A stretch of 64,000 nucleotides of DNA from an uncultured Muribaculaceae bacterium (GCA_964408085.1 CAYOYB010000004.1:1057-65056), one strand, 5' to 3'. Positions 39,751 to 63,621 are shown, counted from the first letter of the stretch. Numbers and translations are program-made. The notes: generated by a model not told the origin, from the letters alone.

Positions 39751-39836
39751 GCCAACCTGGCGGAATGGTAGACGCAGTGGACTCAAAATCCACCGATAGC
39801 AATATCATGAGGGTTCAAGTCCCTTGGTTGGTACCA
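39751..39836 (+). tRNA. tRNA-Leu (anticodon CAA), CCA encoded
   Basis: Acceptor stem GCCAACC/GGTTGGT (G1.U72). Anticodon loop CT-CAA-AA. Long variable arm (CCGATAGCAATATCATGAGG). T-arm GGTTCAAGTCC. 3' ACCA. Confidence 0.9.
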
Positions 39837-51795: not shown

Positions 51796-52818
51796 ATGAA
51801 AAAGAAAAAAATTATATCATCCATAATATTAGTAATTTTATTCTTAGGAATCATTTATAAACCTAGTATAATTAAGGCTGACTCTGGTTTTGACTCTAGT
51901 TGGGATAGTGGCTCATCAGGATGGAGTAGCTCATCAGATTGGGGGAGTTCTTCAGATTGGGGCAGCTCATCAAGTTGGAGTAGCAGTTCGCATAGTAGCA
52001 GTGGTAGCTATATCTACGGTGGATTTTATTTTGATGTCATCTCTATTACTACTGTTGTTATGTTAACATTTGTTGTATTTACTTTCTATCTAACTTTAGC
52101 AAAAATAGTAAGAAACGATATTATACCAAAAATAATTATTTTTACACCATATTTTACATTTGTTACTTACATATTTGGTTTTATTAATCTTATTGCAGCA
52201 ATAATTACATTAAAGATACTTCTAAATAAAAATAAACAAAATAATAATTCCAACCAATCATCTAATTTACCAAACAAGTTATCTATAGAAGAAATTAACA
52301 AATATCTACCAAATTTCAATGTTGAAGAATTTAATACTACTGTCTTTAAAATATATAAAGATATTCAAGAAGCTTGGATGAATTTTGATTTAGAGACAAT
52401 CAGAAATTTAGTTAGTGATGAAATTTATAATATGTATTCAATGCAACTTAGTACTTTACAAGTTAAAGGTCAAAAAAATATGATGGAAAATATTAAATAT
52501 ATTGATAATTATATCTCTAATATTTCAATAGATAACAATATTACGACGATTCAAACTGTTTTAAAAGTAACTTGTAATGATTACGTTATTGATAATGATA
52601 ATAAAGTAGTAAGAGGTAATAAATATCGAACACTAACCTATACATATGTATTAACATTTACAAAATATACAGAGCCTAAAAATATTACTAATTGTCCAAA
52701 CTGTGGAGCAGAAATTAGTATTAATTCTAATGGTAAATGTAAATACTGTAATGCTACTATCATAAACGAAGAAGAAAAATGGATTATGACTAAAAAACAG
52801 ATGTTAGTTCAAAAATAA
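51796..52818 (+). CDS. Tim44-like domain membrane protein with Ser/Trp-rich repeat and C-terminal zinc ribbon (paralog 1)
   Basis: Signal/TM, then SGFDSSWDSGSSGWSSSSDWGSSSDWGSSSSWSSSS, then TM helices. The Tim44-like region is FKIYKDIQEAWMNFDLETIRNLVSDEIY.... Ends with CPNCGA...CKYCNA. Confidence 0.6.
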   Translation: MKKKKIISSIILVILFLGIIYKPSIIKADSGFDSSWDSGSSGWSSSSDWGSSSDWGSSSSWSSSSHSSSGSYIYGGFYFDVISITTVVMLTFVVFTFYLTLAKIVRNDIIPKIIIFTPYFTFVTYIFGFINLIAAIITLKILLNKNKQNNNSNQSSNLPNKLSIEEINKYLPNFNVEEFNTTVFKIYKDIQEAWMNFDLETIRNLVSDEIYNMYSMQLSTLQVKGQKNMMENIKYIDNYISNISIDNNITTIQTVLKVTCNDYVIDNDNKVVRGNKYRTLTYTYVLTFTKYTEPKNITNCPNCGAEISINSNGKCKYCNATIINEEEKWIMTKKQMLVQK

Positions 52819-56998: not shown

Positions 56999-57142
56999 AT
57001 TTTCCCTCCATTTTTATAATGAATCAAATAAAGAAAAAATATGCTTAATACTTTACAAAATTTATATTTTTACTGTAAACAATTATTAATAAGTAATTTT
57101 CATAAATAAGAAGTATGCTAAAATAAAAATAGGTGAAAACTT

Positions 57143-58006
57143 ATGAAGAAAAAAGTGTTAACAATTTTAATGCTAGTTATTTTATTTTTGGGAATCATTT
57201 ATAAACCAATTATTATTAAGGCTGATTCAGGATTTGATTCTAGTTATGATAGTGGTAGTTCATCAAGTAGTTCATCAGACTGGAGTTCATCAGATTGGAA
57301 TTCATATGGTGTTTCTCATCAAAATTCCCCGTATAATACTATATCTGTGATTATAATTGCCTCTTTAATTGCAATAGTATATATAATAGCATTTAGAAGA
57401 GTAATAAAAACAATTAAAGAAACAATTAATGAACAGATAGAGGCAAGTTATCTACTAAAATTAACTACTGAAGAGATTCAAACTAAACTACCTAATTTAA
57501 ATATAGAAGAATTTAATAAAATTGTATTTAATAATTACAAAGAGATTCAAATAGCTTGGATGAATTTTGATTTAGATACAATTAAAAATCTAGTAAGTGA
57601 CGAAATATACAATATGTATTCAATGCAGTTAGACACATTAAAAGTTAAAGGTCAAAAAAATATGATGGAAAATATTAATTATGTAGATAACTATATATGT
57701 AATATAACAATAGAAAATGATATAACAACTATTAGTACAATTCTATCTGTCACTTGTTATGATTATATTGTTGATAATAATAACAAAGTTATTAGAGGAA
57801 GCAAAAATAAAGAATTATATTATACATATAGATTAACATTCACTAAAAATAGTATTGATAAAAATATAGATAATTGTCCTAATTGTGGCGCCAAAATTAA
57901 TTCTAAGAAAGATACAAAATGTCATTATTGTGGTGCAACTATAGTTAATAACAATTCAGAATGGATTATGACGAAGAAAGAAATGTTAGGACAACAAACA
58001 AAATAA
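57143..58006 (+). CDS. Tim44-like domain membrane protein with Ser-rich repeat and zinc ribbon (paralog 4)
   Basis: N-terminus LVILFLGIIYKPIIIKADSGFDSSYDSGSS is almost identical to paralog 1. C-terminal domain and CPNCGA...CHYCGA are highly similar to 51796-52818. Confidence 0.6.
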   Translation: MKKKVLTILMLVILFLGIIYKPIIIKADSGFDSSYDSGSSSSSSSDWSSSDWNSYGVSHQNSPYNTISVIIIASLIAIVYIIAFRRVIKTIKETINEQIEASYLLKLTTEEIQTKLPNLNIEEFNKIVFNNYKEIQIAWMNFDLDTIKNLVSDEIYNMYSMQLDTLKVKGQKNMMENINYVDNYICNITIENDITTISTILSVTCYDYIVDNNNKVIRGSKNKELYYTYRLTFTKNSIDKNIDNCPNCGAKINSKKDTKCHYCGATIVNNNSEWIMTKKEMLGQQTK

Positions 58007-58036
58007 GTATAGACTAAAAATCTATACTTATTTTTT
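58005..58036. terminator. terminator hairpin between the Tim44-like gene and aspS
   Basis: AAGTATAG-ACTAAAAAT-CTATACTT followed by ATTTTTT. Confidence 0.55.
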
Positions 58037-59785
58037 CTATCTAACTTTTATATGAACTTCTCTTAATTGTTGTTCTGTTACCTCAGTTGGTGAACCCATT
58101 AACATATCAGCTCCACTTGCTGTCATTGGGAACGCTATTGTTTCACGAATACTTGTTTCATCTTTAAGTAACATTAACATTCTATCAATTCCAATTGCCA
58201 TACCTGCATGTGGTGGTGCGCCATATTGGAAAGCTGTATATAACGACTTAAATTTATCTTTAAGTGTTTCTTCATCATAACCAGCAATTTCAAAAGCTTT
58301 CTTCATAATTTCGATATCATGATTTCTGACAGCTCCACTAACTAATTCAATACCATTACAAACAAAATCATATTGATATGCTAAAACATCTTCTGGATTT
58401 TTGGTATTTAAACTTTCCATACCACCTTGTGGCATACTGAATGGATTATGTGTAAATATATAATGATTAACATCACTATCATACTCAAACATTGGGAAAT
58501 CATTGATAATACAAAATTCAAAGCGATTAGAATCTAATAAATCTAATTTACGACCTAACTCTAGTCTTATTTGACCAGCTTGTTTACTAGCTTGTAATTC
58601 ATTTTTATCAGCGATAAAAAATAATACGCTACCAATATTTAAATTAGCTCTTTCAATTAAATCACTTTTATCTTTTTCTGTTAAAAATTTATCAATAGGT
58701 CCTTTAAAACTCATATCATCTTGAACAGTAATATAACCAATTCCTGGCATACCAATACTTTTAGCGTAATCAACAACCTCATTAAACCAACTATTTGATT
58801 TACTAGCTAAATCATCGACTTTAATTCCACGAACAGTTACACCTTTAAATGGTTTAAATTCTGAATTTTCAAAAATATCACTTAAATCAATTATTTCAAA
58901 AGGAATTCTTAAATCTGGTTTATCAGAACCATATTTTAACATAGCTTCACGATAAGGAATACGTCTAAATGGTGTTTCAGACATTTTTTTATCACTGAAC
59001 TTAGCAAATACATCTTTAAATATTTGCTCACCTACCCCATAAACATCCTCTTCTTCAGCAAAAGCCATTTCAAAATCCAATTGATAAAACTCCCCATAAA
59101 CACGATCTGATCTAGCATCCTCATCTCTAAAACAAGGGGCAACTTGAAAATATTTATCAAATCCACTGACCATTAAAAGTTGTTTAAAAATTTGTGGTGC
59201 TTGTGGTAAAGCATAGAATTTTCCATGGAAAAGTCGTGATGGAACGATAAAATCTCTTGCCCCCTCTGGTGATGACGCAGTTAAGATTGGTGTTTGAATT
59301 TCTGTAAACCCTAAATCTTCCATTTCATGTCTTAAAAATTTAATAACATCTGATCTAAAAATAATATTATCATGAACTTTCTTATTTCTTAAATCTAAAT
59401 AACGATACTTAAGTCTAACTTCTTCGCTACTTTCTTTTGATGTCATAACTTCAAATGGTAAAACATTTTTAGCTTTACCTAAAACATCAATACTTTCTAC
59501 GACTACTTCAACTTCTCCAGATTTTAAACGAGGGTTATAATCTTCTTCATTTCTTTTTCTAACCACACCATTTAAACAAACAGTTGATTCACGAGTTAAT
59601 CCATCAAAAATAGAATCATCATTACTTACAACTTGAACAGTTCCTTTTTCATCACGAATATCAAGAAATATTACGCCACCATGGTCACGAATATTTTCAA
59701 TCCATCCAGAAAATTTAACTTGCTTCCCAACATAATCATTATTTATATCACCACAGTAACAATTACGATATTTATTTTCTCTCAT
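58037..59785 (-). CDS. aspS: aspartyl-tRNA synthetase (bacterial type)
   Basis: 582 aa. N-terminal OB fold. Class II motifs: FYQLDFEMAF region, GAPPHAGMAIGIDRMLMLL. A GAD-like insertion is present. Confidence 0.95.
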   Translation of the reverse strand: MRENKYRNCYCGDINNDYVGKQVKFSGWIENIRDHGGVIFLDIRDEKGTVQVVSNDDSIFDGLTRESTVCLNGVVRKRNEEDYNPRLKSGEVEVVVESIDVLGKAKNVLPFEVMTSKESSEEVRLKYRYLDLRNKKVHDNIIFRSDVIKFLRHEMEDLGFTEIQTPILTASSPEGARDFIVPSRLFHGKFYALPQAPQIFKQLLMVSGFDKYFQVAPCFRDEDARSDRVYGEFYQLDFEMAFAEEEDVYGVGEQIFKDVFAKFSDKKMSETPFRRIPYREAMLKYGSDKPDLRIPFEIIDLSDIFENSEFKPFKGVTVRGIKVDDLASKSNSWFNEVVDYAKSIGMPGIGYITVQDDMSFKGPIDKFLTEKDKSDLIERANLNIGSVLFFIADKNELQASKQAGQIRLELGRKLDLLDSNRFEFCIINDFPMFEYDSDVNHYIFTHNPFSMPQGGMESLNTKNPEDVLAYQYDFVCNGIELVSGAVRNHDIEIMKKAFEIAGYDEETLKDKFKSLYTAFQYGAPPHAGMAIGIDRMLMLLKDETSIRETIAFPMTASGADMLMGSPTEVTEQQLREVHIKVR

Positions 59786-59787
59786 AA

Positions 59788-61248
59788 TTACCTCTTTTCA
59801 ATTTCACTAATCATCATGTTTCTTGTCATTGCTGGATTAGCTTGACCTTTTGTCTTTTTCATAACTTGACCTACTAAAAAGTCCACAATATTAGTTCTTC
59901 CTTGTTTATAAGTAACAATAGCGTCTGGTTGTTCATCAAGTACTTCAGTAACAATTTTTAAAATTTCATCTTCGCCACCAATTTGTTTAATACCTAAATC
60001 TTCTACAATAGCGCTAGGATCTTTTTTGTCTTCTAAAGATTTATAAAAAACTTCTTTACTTTGTTTTGAAGAAATCTTACCATCTTCTATCATTTTAATT
60101 AAATCTACTAACATTTGAGGAGTAAAGAATAAATCCTTTATTTCCATTTCATTTTTATTTAAGTAACCCAAAATAATACTAGTAACCCAGTTAGAAGCTG
60201 ACTTAGGATTAGCTCCTAATTTAATGGCTTCTTCATAATAATCAGCGACATCTTTTTCTTTAACAATTATTGTGGCGTCATAATTAGAAATACCATATTC
60301 ATTAATATATTTTTCTTTTCTCTCTGGTGCAAGTTCTGGTATAGATGCTTTTATACTTTCTAACCATTCTTGCGACAACTTAAATTTTGGTAAATTTGGT
60401 TCAATAAAATATTTATAGTCAATGGCATCTACTTTACTTCGCATATAAATAGTTGTACCTGACTCTTCATCCCAACGTCTTGTTTGTTGTTCCATTTTAT
60501 CATATTCGCCAGATTCTTTAAGTTCAATTTGTCTTTCAATTTCATAATTAATCGCATCTCTAACGCCACCAAAAGAATTGACATTTTTGATTTCAACTTT
60601 AGTTCCCCAATTTTCTTCTTTGGTTTCATCTAAGTTTTCATCCATAATAGATACATTGACGTCACATCTAATTTGTCCTTTTTTACTATCTGCTTCACTA
60701 ATACCTGCATATTGATAAATAGACCTCATTGTCTCTAAAAAAGAAACTGCTTCTTTAGCTGAATGAAAATCTGGATAAGTAACTAACTCTAAAAGTGGTA
60801 CACCTGCTCTATTATAGTCAATAGTTGAAACAGTTGCATAATGGTCAGTACTTGCAGCATCTTCCTCTAAGTGAATATTATTAATACGAACTGTTTTTAA
60901 TTCATCATCACATTCATAAGTTAAACTACCATATATACCAACTGGAGCTGGTTTTGTTTCTTGTGTAATTTGAAAGCCCTTTGGTAAGTCAGGATAATAA
61001 TAATTTTTTCTTTCAAAATAAATATATTCAGGTTGCTTACAATTTAAAATAATACTAGCCATTAAAGCTTTTTTTATTGCTTCTTTATTTACAACTGGTA
61101 AAGTACCTGGGAAGGCCATATCAACAGGACGAATATTGCTATTAGGTATATCACTATAAGAGTTGGCAGCACCAGAGAAAACTTTTGTCTTAGTTTCACT
61201 AATTTCACAGTGCATTTCTAAACCAATTAGAACTTTATAACCATTCAT
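59788..61248 (-). CDS. gatB: Asp/Glu-tRNA amidotransferase subunit B
   Basis: 486 aa. VLIGLEMHCEI start, DYNRAGVPLLE, and a C-terminal YqeY-like tail. Confidence 0.95.
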   Translation of the reverse strand: MNGYKVLIGLEMHCEISETKTKVFSGAANSYSDIPNSNIRPVDMAFPGTLPVVNKEAIKKALMASIILNCKQPEYIYFERKNYYYPDLPKGFQITQETKPAPVGIYGSLTYECDDELKTVRINNIHLEEDAASTDHYATVSTIDYNRAGVPLLELVTYPDFHSAKEAVSFLETMRSIYQYAGISEADSKKGQIRCDVNVSIMDENLDETKEENWGTKVEIKNVNSFGGVRDAINYEIERQIELKESGEYDKMEQQTRRWDEESGTTIYMRSKVDAIDYKYFIEPNLPKFKLSQEWLESIKASIPELAPERKEKYINEYGISNYDATIIVKEKDVADYYEEAIKLGANPKSASNWVTSIILGYLNKNEMEIKDLFFTPQMLVDLIKMIEDGKISSKQSKEVFYKSLEDKKDPSAIVEDLGIKQIGGEDEILKIVTEVLDEQPDAIVTYKQGRTNIVDFLVGQVMKKTKGQANPAMTRNMMISEIEKR

Positions 61249-62705
61249 TATTCTACCTCCTTAGCAATTTGATTTTTGTAATCCATTGAACTTTCTAAAG
61301 CATACGCAATATTTAATACATTAGCATCATCATAACAGTTTCCAGTTATATTAACACCAACTGGCAAATTATTAACAAAACCATTTGGAATTGTAATAGA
61401 TGGAAAACCACCAAAATTTCCAATTTGTAAATGTTCTTCTAAAATTTGAGTACTTGCATCTAAAATATCTAAAGAACCATCTAAGTGTTTAGCAGGACCA
61501 CTTCCAACTGGTAAAATAACAGCGTCATATTTTTCATAAAGTTTTTTCCACTCATCAACCAATAATCTTCTAACTCTTTGAGCATTAAAGAAATAACGAT
61601 TTTTATTTTGTGCTTGTAATACATAAGAGCCAATTACAAATCTTCTTTTAATAAGTGGTGAGAAACCTTCAGTACGATAATTTTTCATCATCTCAATATA
61701 ATTTTTACCTTCACCACGTGGACCAAAAATAATACCTGTTAAATTTGACATATTACTTGTTGCCTCAGCACATGATATAACAACATAAACACTTGCTACA
61801 GCATTAAGCAATTTTTTATCAATAGAAACTTCTTCAATTTCCATACCTAATTCACGACATTTATCAAGTGTTTTCTTAAAATTTTCTAAATGACTTTTCA
61901 ATTCATCACTAGCATTAGGATAATTTTCGATATCACAAATTTCTTTAACATAACATAATTTTTTACCTTTAACATCACCATTTAAAGAATCAGCCAAATG
62001 AATATCACTAGAGTCCCAACTAGTCATATCATTTTTGTCAATTCCTTTCATATTGTCAGCAACAATAGCGGCATCTAAAACACATCTAGATAAAACACCA
62101 CAGTGATCTAAACTACTAGCAAAAGGAAACAAACCATATCGTGAAATCATTCCATAAGTAGGTTTATAACCAACAATTCCACAATATGCTGCTGGCTTTC
62201 TTATCGAGTCTCCTGTATCACTACCAGTAGCATATGGGTACACCCCAGCTGCTACTGCACAAGCACTACCTGCAGAAGAACCAGCACACATTCTTGTTTT
62301 ATCCCATGGATTTCTAACCATTCCTGTATGACCAGTTGTACCTGTTCCACCCATACCAAATTCATCTAAAACTGTTTTATTAACAGCTACTGCTCCAGAA
62401 TGCTCCAAATTTTTAATAGCGGTTGCTGTAAAAAAAGGAACATAATCTTTTAAAGTATTTGATGAACCAGTACTTAAAATACCTTTAGTACTATAATTAT
62501 CTTTAATACCATAAGGAATACCTGATAATAAATTATCTGTAACATTACTACCCTTAGCGTCATCTAAAATTGTAACAAACGCATTATACTTATCCTGAAT
62601 TTCATGAGATTTTTTTAAAGATTCCCTAACTAATTCATCACTAGTAACAACACCATTTTTTAAATCCTCATGTAGTTCTTTAATTGTTTTTTCCATATAA
62701 CTCAT
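61248..62705 (-). CDS. gatA: Asp/Glu-tRNA amidotransferase subunit A
   Basis: 485 aa. Amidase signature: GGTGTTG..., CAGSSAGSACAVAAG, GSDTGDSIRKPAAYCG. Confidence 0.95.
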   Translation of the reverse strand: MSYMEKTIKELHEDLKNGVVTSDELVRESLKKSHEIQDKYNAFVTILDDAKGSNVTDNLLSGIPYGIKDNYSTKGILSTGSSNTLKDYVPFFTATAIKNLEHSGAVAVNKTVLDEFGMGGTGTTGHTGMVRNPWDKTRMCAGSSAGSACAVAAGVYPYATGSDTGDSIRKPAAYCGIVGYKPTYGMISRYGLFPFASSLDHCGVLSRCVLDAAIVADNMKGIDKNDMTSWDSSDIHLADSLNGDVKGKKLCYVKEICDIENYPNASDELKSHLENFKKTLDKCRELGMEIEEVSIDKKLLNAVASVYVVISCAEATSNMSNLTGIIFGPRGEGKNYIEMMKNYRTEGFSPLIKRRFVIGSYVLQAQNKNRYFFNAQRVRRLLVDEWKKLYEKYDAVILPVGSGPAKHLDGSLDILDASTQILEEHLQIGNFGGFPSITIPNGFVNNLPVGVNITGNCYDDANVLNIAYALESSMDYKNQIAKEVE

Positions 62706-62706
62706 A

Positions 62707-63006
62707 CTATTCCACCACCTTTGGCACTTCTACTTCACGGTCATTATAGACATCACAGTTTTGAAGTAATTCATCAATTGGTGTTGATTCCTCAACTTCA
62801 TCTTCTCTTAACTCAAATGAAAAATTATCTAAACACCAAGACATTGGCTCAACATCTTCAATATTTGGTACTTTAGTAATAATATCAATATCAATATCGA
62901 TTACTCCAAATTCATCTAATATCATCTTATTTTCTTCTTTTGTTAGATCGATTAATAACTTATCAGCTAAATCATCAACAATCTCACTCGTAAATTTATT
63001 CTCCAT
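62707..63006 (-). CDS. gatC: Asp/Glu-tRNA amidotransferase subunit C
   Basis: Start moved to MENKFTSE (AGGAGG RBS). Small acidic protein immediately upstream of gatA. Confidence 0.8.
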   Translation of the reverse strand: MENKFTSEIVDDLADKLLIDLTKEENKMILDEFGVIDIDIDIITKVPNIEDVEPMSWCLDNFSFELREDEVEESTPIDELLQNCDVYNDREVEVPKVVE

Positions 63007-63025
63007 GATAATCCTCCTTTTATAT

Positions 63026-63055
63026 AAAAAATTCCTGAACGACAAAATTCAGAAA
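63026..63055 (-). terminator. weak AU-rich hairpin + U6 between the tRNA-Asn array and gatC
   Basis: On the - strand, UUUCUGAA-UUUUGUCG-UUCAGGAA (8 bp including one G.U) is followed by UUUUUU. There is no room for a promoter before the gatC RBS. Confidence 0.45.
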
Positions 63056-63070
63056 TTTTATTAACAAATA

Positions 63071-63146
63071 TGGCGCCTGATGTAGGACTCGGACCTACGA
63101 CCTACCGGTTAACAGCCGGGTGCTCTACCAACTGAGCTAATCAGGC
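63071..63146 (-). tRNA. tRNA-Asn (anticodon GTT), copy 3 in transcription order
   Basis: Reverse complement is GCCTGATTAGCTCAGTTGGTAGAGCACCCGGCTGTTAACCGGTAGGTCGTAGGTCCGAGTCCTACATCAGGCGCCA. Cloverleaf with CT-GTT-AA anticodon loop; CCA encoded. Confidence 0.92.
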
Positions 63147-63152
63147 AATAAG

Positions 63153-63228
63153 TGGCGCTCAATGTAGGACTCGGACCTACGACCTGCCGGTTAACAGCCG
63201 GATGCTCTACCAACTGAGCTAATTGAGC
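63153..63228 (-). tRNA. tRNA-Asn (anticodon GTT), variant copy
   Basis: Same length and anticodon. Acceptor stem is GCTCAAT/ATTGAGC instead of GCCTGAT/ATCAGGC (compensated changes), with further changes around the anticodon stem and variable region (CATCCGG...CCGGCAG vs CACCCGG...CCGGTAG). Confidence 0.92.
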
Positions 63229-63233
63229 AGATA

Positions 63234-63309
63234 TGGCGCCTGATGTAGGACTCGGACCTACGACCTACCGGTTAACAGCCGGGTGCTCTACCAACTGAGC
63301 TAATCAGGC
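63234..63309 (-). tRNA. tRNA-Asn (anticodon GTT), copy 1 in transcription order
   Basis: Identical in sequence to 63071-63146. Confidence 0.92.
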
Positions 63310-63317
63310 AAATAACT

Positions 63318-63586
63318 AAAAAAACAGCTATTTCATCCACTTAAGGACGAATAACTGTGTATCCGCGGTACCACCCTTATTATTATATATCACTATATAA
63401 TCACTCATTGTTCTTCTGAACTTGCAATGGTAACGGATCACAGTCCGACTTATTCTACTTTCAAGAGATTTCGATAAGTAACTCCGTGGTGTTATTCATA
63501 TTAGCCACAATGTTAGTTCTCACCATTCTAACTCTCTTTAAATAGAAACTAATATTACTTCTCCACTTCACAGTTTTAAAATAACT
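63318..63586 (-). promoter_or_regulatory. T-box riboswitch leader, specifier candidate AAC (Asn)
   Basis: On the - strand: T-box AAGGGTGGTACCGCG (63364-63378) and F-box CCGTTA (63431-63436). Stem I spans 63480-63575, with K-turn-like GUGAA/GGA, specifier loop AGAAGUA // GAAU-AAC-A, AG bulge AGAGA, and distal loop AAUGGUGAGAA closed by GUUAG/CUAAC. The terminator is a stem of about 14 bp followed by U7 (63318-63358). Confidence 0.85.
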
Positions 63587-63592
63587 AGATAT

Positions 63593-63621
63593 AGTATATA
63601 ATAATTGGCTAATGTTGTCAA
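63593..63621 (-). promoter_or_regulatory. promoter of the T-box leader
   Basis: On the - strand: TTGACA (63616-63621), 17 nt, TATACT (63593-63598). Confidence 0.65.

Follow-up and report, generated by a model that had tools for sequence, protein, structure and literature searches.

Here we describe a T-box leader that appears to govern the genes of the very tRNA it senses, found at positions 63,318 to 63,621 in a 64,000-nucleotide stretch of DNA (the window; ~27% G+C) from an uncultured Muribaculaceae bacterium (GCA_964408085.1 CAYOYB010000004.1:1057-65056). We consider it likely that this leader is a transcription-attenuating tRNA-Asn T-box riboswitch heading a composite operon, in which three tRNA-Asn(GUU) genes are followed by gatC-gatA-gatB-aspS, the genes for the amidotransferase GatCAB and an aspartyl-tRNA synthetase (AspRS). 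All features of the operon lie on the minus strand and are numbered from the first letter of the window. In the textbook picture, the outputs of T-boxes are enzymes and transporters, and tRNAs are not among the known ones. A T-box that controls its own ligand would have a different regulatory topology: a positive loop acting on the signal, nested with a negative loop that runs through the charging enzymes. Such nested loops could produce bistability, or could scale a single decoding capacity to demand, and if the arrangement is real, the expression of bacterial tRNA genes could be set tRNA by tRNA through the aminoacylation state.

The leader matches the Rfam T-box model RF00230 at 63340..63580, over the full length of the model (positions 1-219 of 219), with 127.1 bits against a gathering threshold of 93 (E = 8e-28), and the match takes in Stem I, Stem II, the IIA/B element, Stem III, the T-box sequence as well as the antiterminator. 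In the covariance-model alignment, Stem I carries the K-turn UGUGAA / GGA and the helix GUGG/CCAC, a specifier loop with AGAAGUA on its 5′ side and GAAUAACA on its 3′ side, the upper helix AUAUUA(G)/(C)UAAUAU with the AGAGA bulge after it, and the distal hairpin GUUAG-AAUGGUGAGAA-CUAAC; the further modules are Stem II (ACUUAU/AUAAGU), the motif CCGUUA and Stem III. The specifier codon is AAC, for Asn, at 63491..63493, and the next base, at 63490, is the purine A. The T-box sequence AAGGGUGGUACCGCG occupies 63364..63378, and its bulge UGGU (63373-63370) can face the tRNA 3′ end GCCA with three Watson-Crick pairs and a U.G wobble at the discriminator G73; one relative (L050) has UGGC in the bulge instead. 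Two other specifier frames, ACA (Thr) and UAA, were tried and rejected, as the C following ACA belongs to a base pair of the GUGG/CCAC helix and the downstream genes are Asn-related. The original prediction, made by eye from the sequence alone, had drawn the same Stem I and Stem II, the same F-box CCGUUA and the same T-box sequence, and had pointed out that a UGGU bulge and a discriminator G would need a U.G pair; the model alignment reproduces the drawing, and the tRNA discriminator is indeed G. It had also proposed a scan with RF00230, holding that a different codon in the specifier position would count against it, and the scan keeps AAC in that place.

Thermodynamic folding to the minimum free energy, whether of the whole leader or of Stem I alone, did not recover the T-box fold or Stem I. 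We regard this failure on Stem I as uninformative because Stem I depends on non-canonical motifs; the support for it comes from the covariance model and from covariation in 37 leaders, and not from folding energy. The folding that had been suggested in order to confirm the specifier did not return Stem I, and it is the covariance model that places AAC. By every sequence criterion the leader belongs to the T-box family, and on those criteria it is a genuine Asn (AAC) T-box.

Transcription would start from a promoter of the sigma-70 type, TTGACA-17-TATACT, at 63593..63621 (11 of 12 consensus positions), which is identical and equivalently placed in the close relatives L006, L009, L046, L048 and L032. 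At the other end of the leader is an intrinsic terminator (63318..63358), a 14-bp hairpin with one bulge followed by U7, in which the hairpin (63358-63324) has a folding energy of -16.7 kcal/mol (z = -3.06) and the U-run spans 63324-63318. The 5′ strand of this terminator (63358-63345) is shared with the 3′ strand of the antiterminator, and the two structures are mutually exclusive; the outer terminator pairs are kept across relatives. Both this terminator and a second hairpin after the tRNA genes were folded directly, a simple terminator scan having missed both (bulge; only two G-C pairs). A spacer of 8 nt, AGUUAUUU, separates the U-run from the start of the first tRNA gene at 63309. The three tRNA-Asn(GUU) genes follow in tandem, at 63234..63309 (69 bits; G1-C72, G73, CCA encoded), 63153..63228 (69 bits; acceptor stem GCUCAAU) and 63071..63146 (69 bits), and the acceptor stem of the second differs from those of the first and third by compensatory changes.

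Since only 8 nt lie between the U-run and the first tRNA, there is no room for a promoter ahead of the tRNA-Asn genes, and a promoter scan of the minus strand from 63320 to 62888, a point inside gatC, found no promoter-like site. Over 57000-63320, promoter-like matches are fewer than in shuffled sequence (30 observed, 37.4 in shuffles). As nothing promoter-like stands between the terminator and the start of gatC, both the tRNA-Asn genes and gatCAB-aspS appear to rely on read-through of the T-box terminator. The promoter, the U7 terminator ending 8 nt ahead of the first of three tRNA-Asn(GUU) genes, and the gatC-gatA-gatB-aspS order on the same strand had all been called beforehand, and each was found in place, the protein genes by NCBIfam; of a separate promoter for the tRNAs, which had been named as a finding that would speak against the idea, the scan shows no candidate from 63320 to 62888. 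The second hairpin (63028..63059) is in the 64-nt spacer that parts the last tRNA from gatC, ahead of the gatC ribosome-binding site; it is AU-rich, runs into a U6 tract and folds at -11.1 kcal/mol (z = -4.17, with 0 of 200 shuffles equally stable). It is probably a partial terminator or a processing or stability element. Most relatives have a hairpin and U-run at this position with differing sequences, and a few species have a U8 tract only.

The layout is shared by a clade. A scan of GTDB, at one genome per species, looked for a T-box sequence followed in turn by a U-run and a tRNA D-arm; 45 genomes matched, 39 of them with an AAC T-box followed by tRNA-Asn in related uncultured Bacilli whose GatB is 52-96% identical to that of the window. 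These 39 genomes carry 1-6 tandem tRNA-Asn copies after the T-box, and gat genes are seen downstream in 29; ARAGORN called the tRNA-Asn in 36, the available stretch ending too early in the other three. Among 37 distinct aligned leaders AAC is invariant (37/37), with U, G or A as the preceding base. In the same alignment, 21 of 47 helix pairs change on both sides, compared with 11.6 in column shuffles (none of 500 as high), and 83% of cells are paired, compared with 33-45% when the partners are slid by 1-3 columns. For the helices of Stem I, pairing stands at 82-98% and both sides have changed in 13 of the 20 pairs; compensatory changes occur in Stem I and Stem II alike. The invariance of AAC together with this helix covariation indicates that throughout the clade selection acts on the leader as a T-box, and recurrence in 39 genomes means that the layout is not an assembly artefact of a single contig. 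With conservation in 39 species-level genomes, control of the ligand's own genes is as well supported as sequence analysis allows. The original prediction had proposed that the switch controls both its own ligand and the route that charges it, and it is the first half that has gained from the 39 genomes and from the missing promoter site; the second half is not established, as discussed below.

All 92 tRNA-Asn genes (window 63071-63309, L006 and L008-L052) have the discriminator G73, an encoded CCA and a T at position -1. The tandem copies show compensatory differences at acceptor positions 3-5/68-70, and a few chimeric copies have a C3.A70 mismatch.

Variants of the layout in relatives bear on how it works. 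In L001 and L004 (GatB 78-81% identical), a similar AAC T-box runs straight into gatC without any tRNA, and the operon is gatCAB-asnS-aspS, where the 460-aa gene encodes an asparaginyl-tRNA synthetase (AsnRS; 594-635 bits); in 12 species-representative loci, the window and L006/L007, aspS comes directly after gatB. A third arrangement has two Asn T-boxes flanking a tRNA-Asn (L013 3340-3914; L020 7038-7617; L045 5707-6280), in the order promoter, T-box 1, one tRNA-Asn, T-box 2 and gatCAB-asnS, with the four RNA elements all called by Rfam and T-box 2 beginning ~12 nt past the tRNA CCA. In these three, one T-box serves the tRNA gene alone, an arrangement that sits badly with the idea of the tRNA as an accidental passenger. 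In a large subclade within L008-L052 (for example L021 6517-6972), tRNA-Ile(GAU) and tRNA-Glu(UUC) end ~30 nt before Stem I and there is no well-spaced promoter, and in these genomes the T-box may act as an internal gate within a tRNA operon.

Some further features of these relatives deserve mention. In L013, L020 and L045, T-box 1 resembles a duplicate of T-box 2. The specifier loops of L004, L013, L015, L017, L020, L030, L041 and L044 read GAAGAACA, in which GAA (Glu) overlaps AAC (Asn), while the window has UAAC. The pre-gatC hairpin of L019, L041, L044 and L052 contains GTAGGTCGTAGGT...CCTAC, which looks like the tRNA-Asn variable/T-arm region; the hairpin has a U6-7 tract after it, folds at -17 to -19 kcal/mol and may be what is left of a degenerate tRNA, acting as a terminator or a minihelix. 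Positions 1-540 of L032 carry a promoter, an AAC T-box, tRNA-Asn, tRNA-Glu, a strong terminator and an unrelated open reading frame (ORF) for a membrane protein. A mis-join at the repeated tRNA-Asn is possible in this contig, and we do not rely on it as proof of a T-box operon that contains tRNAs only.

The arrangement recurs with other amino acids. The GTDB scan also returned six T-box-like leaders ahead of tRNA-Phe (L016, L023, L024, L029, L031 and L043). One is in the cultured Paenibacillus filicis KACC14197 (L023 6657-7201), where a T-box of 109.5 bits with the specifier UUC precedes three tRNA-Phe genes and a DUF6273 protein. The UUC leaders before tRNA-Phe in metagenome-assembled genomes (MAGs) score under the Rfam threshold, among them L029 (3507-7332), in which a sub-threshold match of 63.5 bits is followed by tRNA-Phe and pheS-pheT. 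A second, looser pattern scan over metagenome contigs gave 92 stretches (L053-L144), with a tRNA gene at the place required by the pattern in 77: Tyr 26, Phe 22, Asn 13, Trp 8, Arg 3 and single others. Most of the non-Asn leaders in this set are below the Rfam threshold, at 35-87 bits. The specifier was cognate in all three alignments inspected: UAC with tRNA-Tyr (L069, 96.6 bits), AAG with tRNA-Lys (L128) and CAC with tRNA-His (L067). The bulge of L067 is UGGG, which would fit C73, the usual discriminator of tRNA-His. Another candidate, L083, was rejected as a T-box, its 'T-box sequence' being the 3′ end of a tRNA. Given this false positive and the sub-threshold scores, we claim cognate matching only for the inspected alignments. 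On present sequence evidence, T-box leaders with a cognate specifier stand before their own tRNA in five specificities (Asn, Phe, Tyr, Lys and His), with Trp and Arg as probable additions. This recurrence, which includes one cultured Paenibacillus, makes the question experimentally approachable.

As separate observations on these loci, P. filicis has a divergent T-box-ileS on the opposite strand. To judge by eye, Stem I is very short in many of the metagenome leaders, the specifier lying in the loop of a hairpin, and a hairpin and U-run stand just before the T-box sequence.

We propose the following course of events. Transcription would begin at TTGACA-17-TATACT. When uncharged tRNA-Asn is at hand, its anticodon would pair with AAC and its free GCCA 3′ end with UGGU, so that the antiterminator is held; otherwise the -16.7 kcal/mol terminator with its U7 would form and transcription would halt 8 nt ahead of the first tRNA gene. 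The read-through RNA would presumably be cut by RNase P and 3′-end nucleases into the leader, three tRNAs and a gatCAB-aspS mRNA. The hairpin after the tRNAs, with its U6 tract, probably passes only part of the transcripts or stabilises an end, and the outputs of tRNA and mRNA would then differ. In this way the switch would raise its own ligand, the positive loop, together with the enzymes most likely to aminoacylate that ligand, the negative loop, and the whole capacity to decode Asn would scale to demand. Asn makes up 7.7% of the residues in the ORFs of the window, where it is the fourth commonest amino acid (codons AAU 1055, AAC 124), and one anticodon presumably reads both AAU and AAC. With such high usage, a high and adjustable supply of tRNA-Asn is plausible as a selected trait.

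It could instead be that the target is gatCAB-aspS and the tRNAs are passengers or punctuation, a cluster tolerated in the 5′ untranslated region or one whose only use is that cutting by RNase P/Z strips the leader off and leaves the mRNA with a defined and stable 5′ end, with no role for a regulated tRNA output. There is precedent for the latter in B. subtilis thrS, where leader cleavage stabilises a T-box-controlled mRNA, and the sister lineages whose T-box runs directly into gatC without tRNAs would fit, as would the metagenome loci, where an ORF often starts 0-40 nt past the tRNA, as a processing signal would give. We think this improbable, however. A processing signal has no need of a tRNA cognate to the specifier, yet the tRNA is cognate in every case dissected (Asn, Phe, Tyr, Lys, His); L013, L020 and L045 have a T-box before the tRNA even though gatCAB-asnS has its own; the tandem copies, 1-6 in number, persist with compensatory changes in their acceptor stems; and in P. 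filicis (and in L032, if it is not chimeric) only tRNA genes stand between the T-box and unrelated genes. Less probable still, in our judgement, is that the tRNAs and enzymes are effectively constitutive, owing to a leaky terminator or an unrecognised promoter in the leader or tRNA cluster, and that the T-box is a decaying remnant. The downstream genes aspS and probably gatCAB are essential and need basal expression, and a weak promoter-like match, TTCAGA-17-TATAGT, does lie within the leader at 63420-63392. But that match overlaps Stem III, is not kept in L006 (GatB 83% identical to that of the window), and would give a transcript that still contains the terminator, and promoter-like matches in the surrounding region are, as noted, scarcer than in shuffles. 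The RF00230 score far over threshold and helices that covary down to 52% GatB identity imply purifying selection rather than decay.

Several points weigh against the self-ligand operon as we have drawn it. From the sequence we infer co-transcription, antitermination by tRNA-Asn, processing, the feedback logic and the identity of the charging enzyme. The post-tRNA hairpins of several relatives are terminator-like, at -17 to -19 kcal/mol, and gatCAB-aspS would have to be expressed from behind two terminators. AspRS, and GatCAB if it is used for Gln-tRNA, would be essential for other tRNAs and yet would be under Asn-specific control. The assembly of MAGs can collapse or mis-join tandem tRNAs, and the copy numbers are uncertain to that extent. 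Finally, all of the tRNA-Asn genes in the window and related loci (92/92) have G1-C72 and not U1-A72, which bears directly on how the tRNA is charged.

Work by Bailly et al. established U1-A72 as the identity pair of bacterial GatCAB; with the enzymes tested, a G1-C72 pair cuts amidation ~100-fold (PMC1635274). In a survey of 547 genera, those without AsnRS all have U1-A72 (186/186 and 98/98), and tRNA-Asn without U1-A72 occurs only in genera that encode AsnRS (PMC4206432). It is quite possible, though we rather doubt it, that an AsnRS encoded elsewhere makes the Asn-tRNA-Asn and that GatCAB serves Gln-tRNA-Gln only. Asn control of gatCAB-aspS would then be left over from an ancestral T-box-gatCAB-asnS-aspS operon that asnS has departed, and the co-regulated enzymes would not charge the co-regulated tRNA. 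This concerns the charging step alone. The universal G1-C72, together with the asnS inside the operon of sister lineages, suggests just such a direct route, and the amidation loss and the genus survey speak for it as well. On the other side, the 64-kb window holds no asnS (tblastn with AsnRS; the sole match is a cross-match to AspRS), and aspS follows gatB directly in the 12 species-representative loci, the window and L006/L007. A search with the AsnRS of L001 gave only same-species variants, of at least 97% identity, among the 120 matches listed. The original prediction had called for a genome-wide look for asnS, of which the answer covers the 64-kb window, and its route through a non-discriminating AspRS and GatCAB has the genes present but is not established, given 92/92 G1-C72 and the asnS of sister operons.

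The enzymes themselves carry marks that point the other way. Nakamura et al. showed that a 3-10 turn in GatB lets S. aureus GatCAB distinguish U1-A72 from G1-C72 (PMC2811023). The turn of the window GatB is D-S-K-K where S. aureus has K183-M184-E185-E186, at equal length (alignment to 2df4_B); residues 186-191 read A-D-S-K-K-G instead of the x-x-M-E-E/K-G found elsewhere, and Ser, at residue 188, replaces the anchoring Met. The canonical turn with a hydrophobic anchor is thus missing from the window GatB. Of 150 library representatives, 128 have Met at the anchor position, 15 have Leu and only 4 have Ser. Behind the turn comes an insertion of 5 residues (about 203-215), and the turn change and the insertion are clade-wide. 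The best PDB match of the AspRS is the P. aeruginosa Asp/Asn ligase (4wj3_M), and its RDHGG motif, in the N-terminal domain, has His at a position where, in the alignment, the Asp/Asn ligases of P. aeruginosa and H. pylori have His too and the discriminating AspRS of E. coli and T. thermophilus has Leu. Bernard et al. in 2006 reportedly described the AspRS positions that mark specificity. At a second position, presumably Gly in the P. aeruginosa enzyme, the window AspRS has Glu. The altered turn and the AspRS His suggest co-evolution towards amidating a G1-C72 tRNA-Asn, and both tell against an AsnRS elsewhere. A G1-C72 tRNA-Asn combined with an altered GatB turn and a putative AspRS signature of the non-discriminating type is a testable case of co-evolution in the identity rule of a bacterial amidotransferase. 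One may go further and suppose both that T-boxes gating their own ligand tRNA are a general, overlooked class and that this operon of gut Bacilli is a self-inducing Asn-tRNA factory of tRNA-Asn, non-discriminating AspRS and GatCAB, in which a remodelled GatB turn has shifted the rule from U1-A72 to G1-C72. We hold this combined proposal to be on balance unlikely; if true, it would make a GatCAB accepting G1-C72 the first exception among bacteria to the U1-A72 rule.

The leader can be compared with several known systems. It is like the class I transcriptional T-boxes (B. subtilis tyrS, glyQS; RF00230) in having all modules, a purine after the specifier, a UGGN bulge facing the tRNA 3′ end, and mutually exclusive terminator and antiterminator. 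It is unlike them in that the first regulated genes are tRNAs cognate to the switch, the known targets being aminoacyl-tRNA synthetases, biosynthesis, transporters and regulators. Tandem T-boxes occur in B. subtilis thrZ and in trp-related operons, and L013, L020 and L045 likewise have two Asn T-boxes serially on one transcript; the difference is the tRNA gene between the switches, such that the tRNA would need one antitermination and the enzymes two. In E. coli thrU-tyrU-glyT-thrT-tufB, tRNAs are co-transcribed with an mRNA. The trn operon of Anabaena is a regulated tRNA operon, repressed by TrcR (PMC10272220). The operon described here resembles these two in placing tRNAs and protein genes on one transcript split by processing, with a conditional tRNA supply, but those operons have no riboswitch and are not governed by the tRNA's own aminoacylation.

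A close counterpart exists in C. acetobutylicum, in which an Asn T-box, and an Asn/Glu two-codon 'NT-box', controls the operon for tRNA-dependent transamidation (PMC4052509 and PMC4574755, which describe the work of Saad et al., 2012 JBC and 2013 PNAS). The original prediction had mentioned Asn T-boxes on clostridial transamidation operons, and PMC4052509 bears this out. On these accounts, the two systems share an Asn-reading T-box at the head of an operon with AspRS and GatCAB, the logic by which uncharged tRNA-Asn switches on tRNA-dependent synthesis of Asn-tRNA, and, in some relatives of the window, a GAAC loop with overlapping GAA and AAC as in the NT-box. They differ in the 1-6 ligand-tRNA genes that here lie between terminator and enzymes, and in the window's UAAC loop (which has no Glu codon), G1-C72 tRNA and gene order gatCAB-aspS. 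The Asn T-box on a transamidation operon is thus known, and the ligand's own genes under the switch are what differs. In a full-text literature search no report of a T-box placed upstream of tRNA genes turned up, although the key T-box surveys may hold an earlier mention.

The protein genes of the operon are compactly arranged. gatC (62707..63006) has the ribosome-binding site AAGGAGG 7 nt ahead of its ATG and matches TIGR00135 with E = 9e-10 and 38.8 bits, below the NCBIfam cut-off of 47.1; gatA (61248..62705) likewise scores 431.7 bits with TIGR00132 against a cut-off of 481.1. Both fall below the NCBIfam equivalog cut-offs and are therefore divergent. gatB, with the altered 3-10 turn, is at 59788..61248 (NF004012, 571.6 bits), and aspS, at 58037..59785, encodes a bacterial-type AspRS with a GAD domain and the RDHGG motif (NF001750, 739 bits). 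Judged by these sequence comparisons, the amidotransferase of the clade is unusually divergent. Outside the clade, the GatB cluster representative that comes nearest reaches just 47% identity.

Elsewhere in the window, genes of conjugation type lie at ~11700-37000 and include a type IV secretion system (T4SS) coupling protein, a TraG-type P-loop ATPase-domain protein, a TrbL-like protein and a T2SSE/VirB11-like ATPase. This block, ~3 kb from a tRNA-Leu(CAA) gene (39751-39836), probably represents an integrative conjugative element. Tim44-like domains occur in two proteins of this 27% G+C Bacilli genome, encoded at 51796-52818 and 57143-58006.

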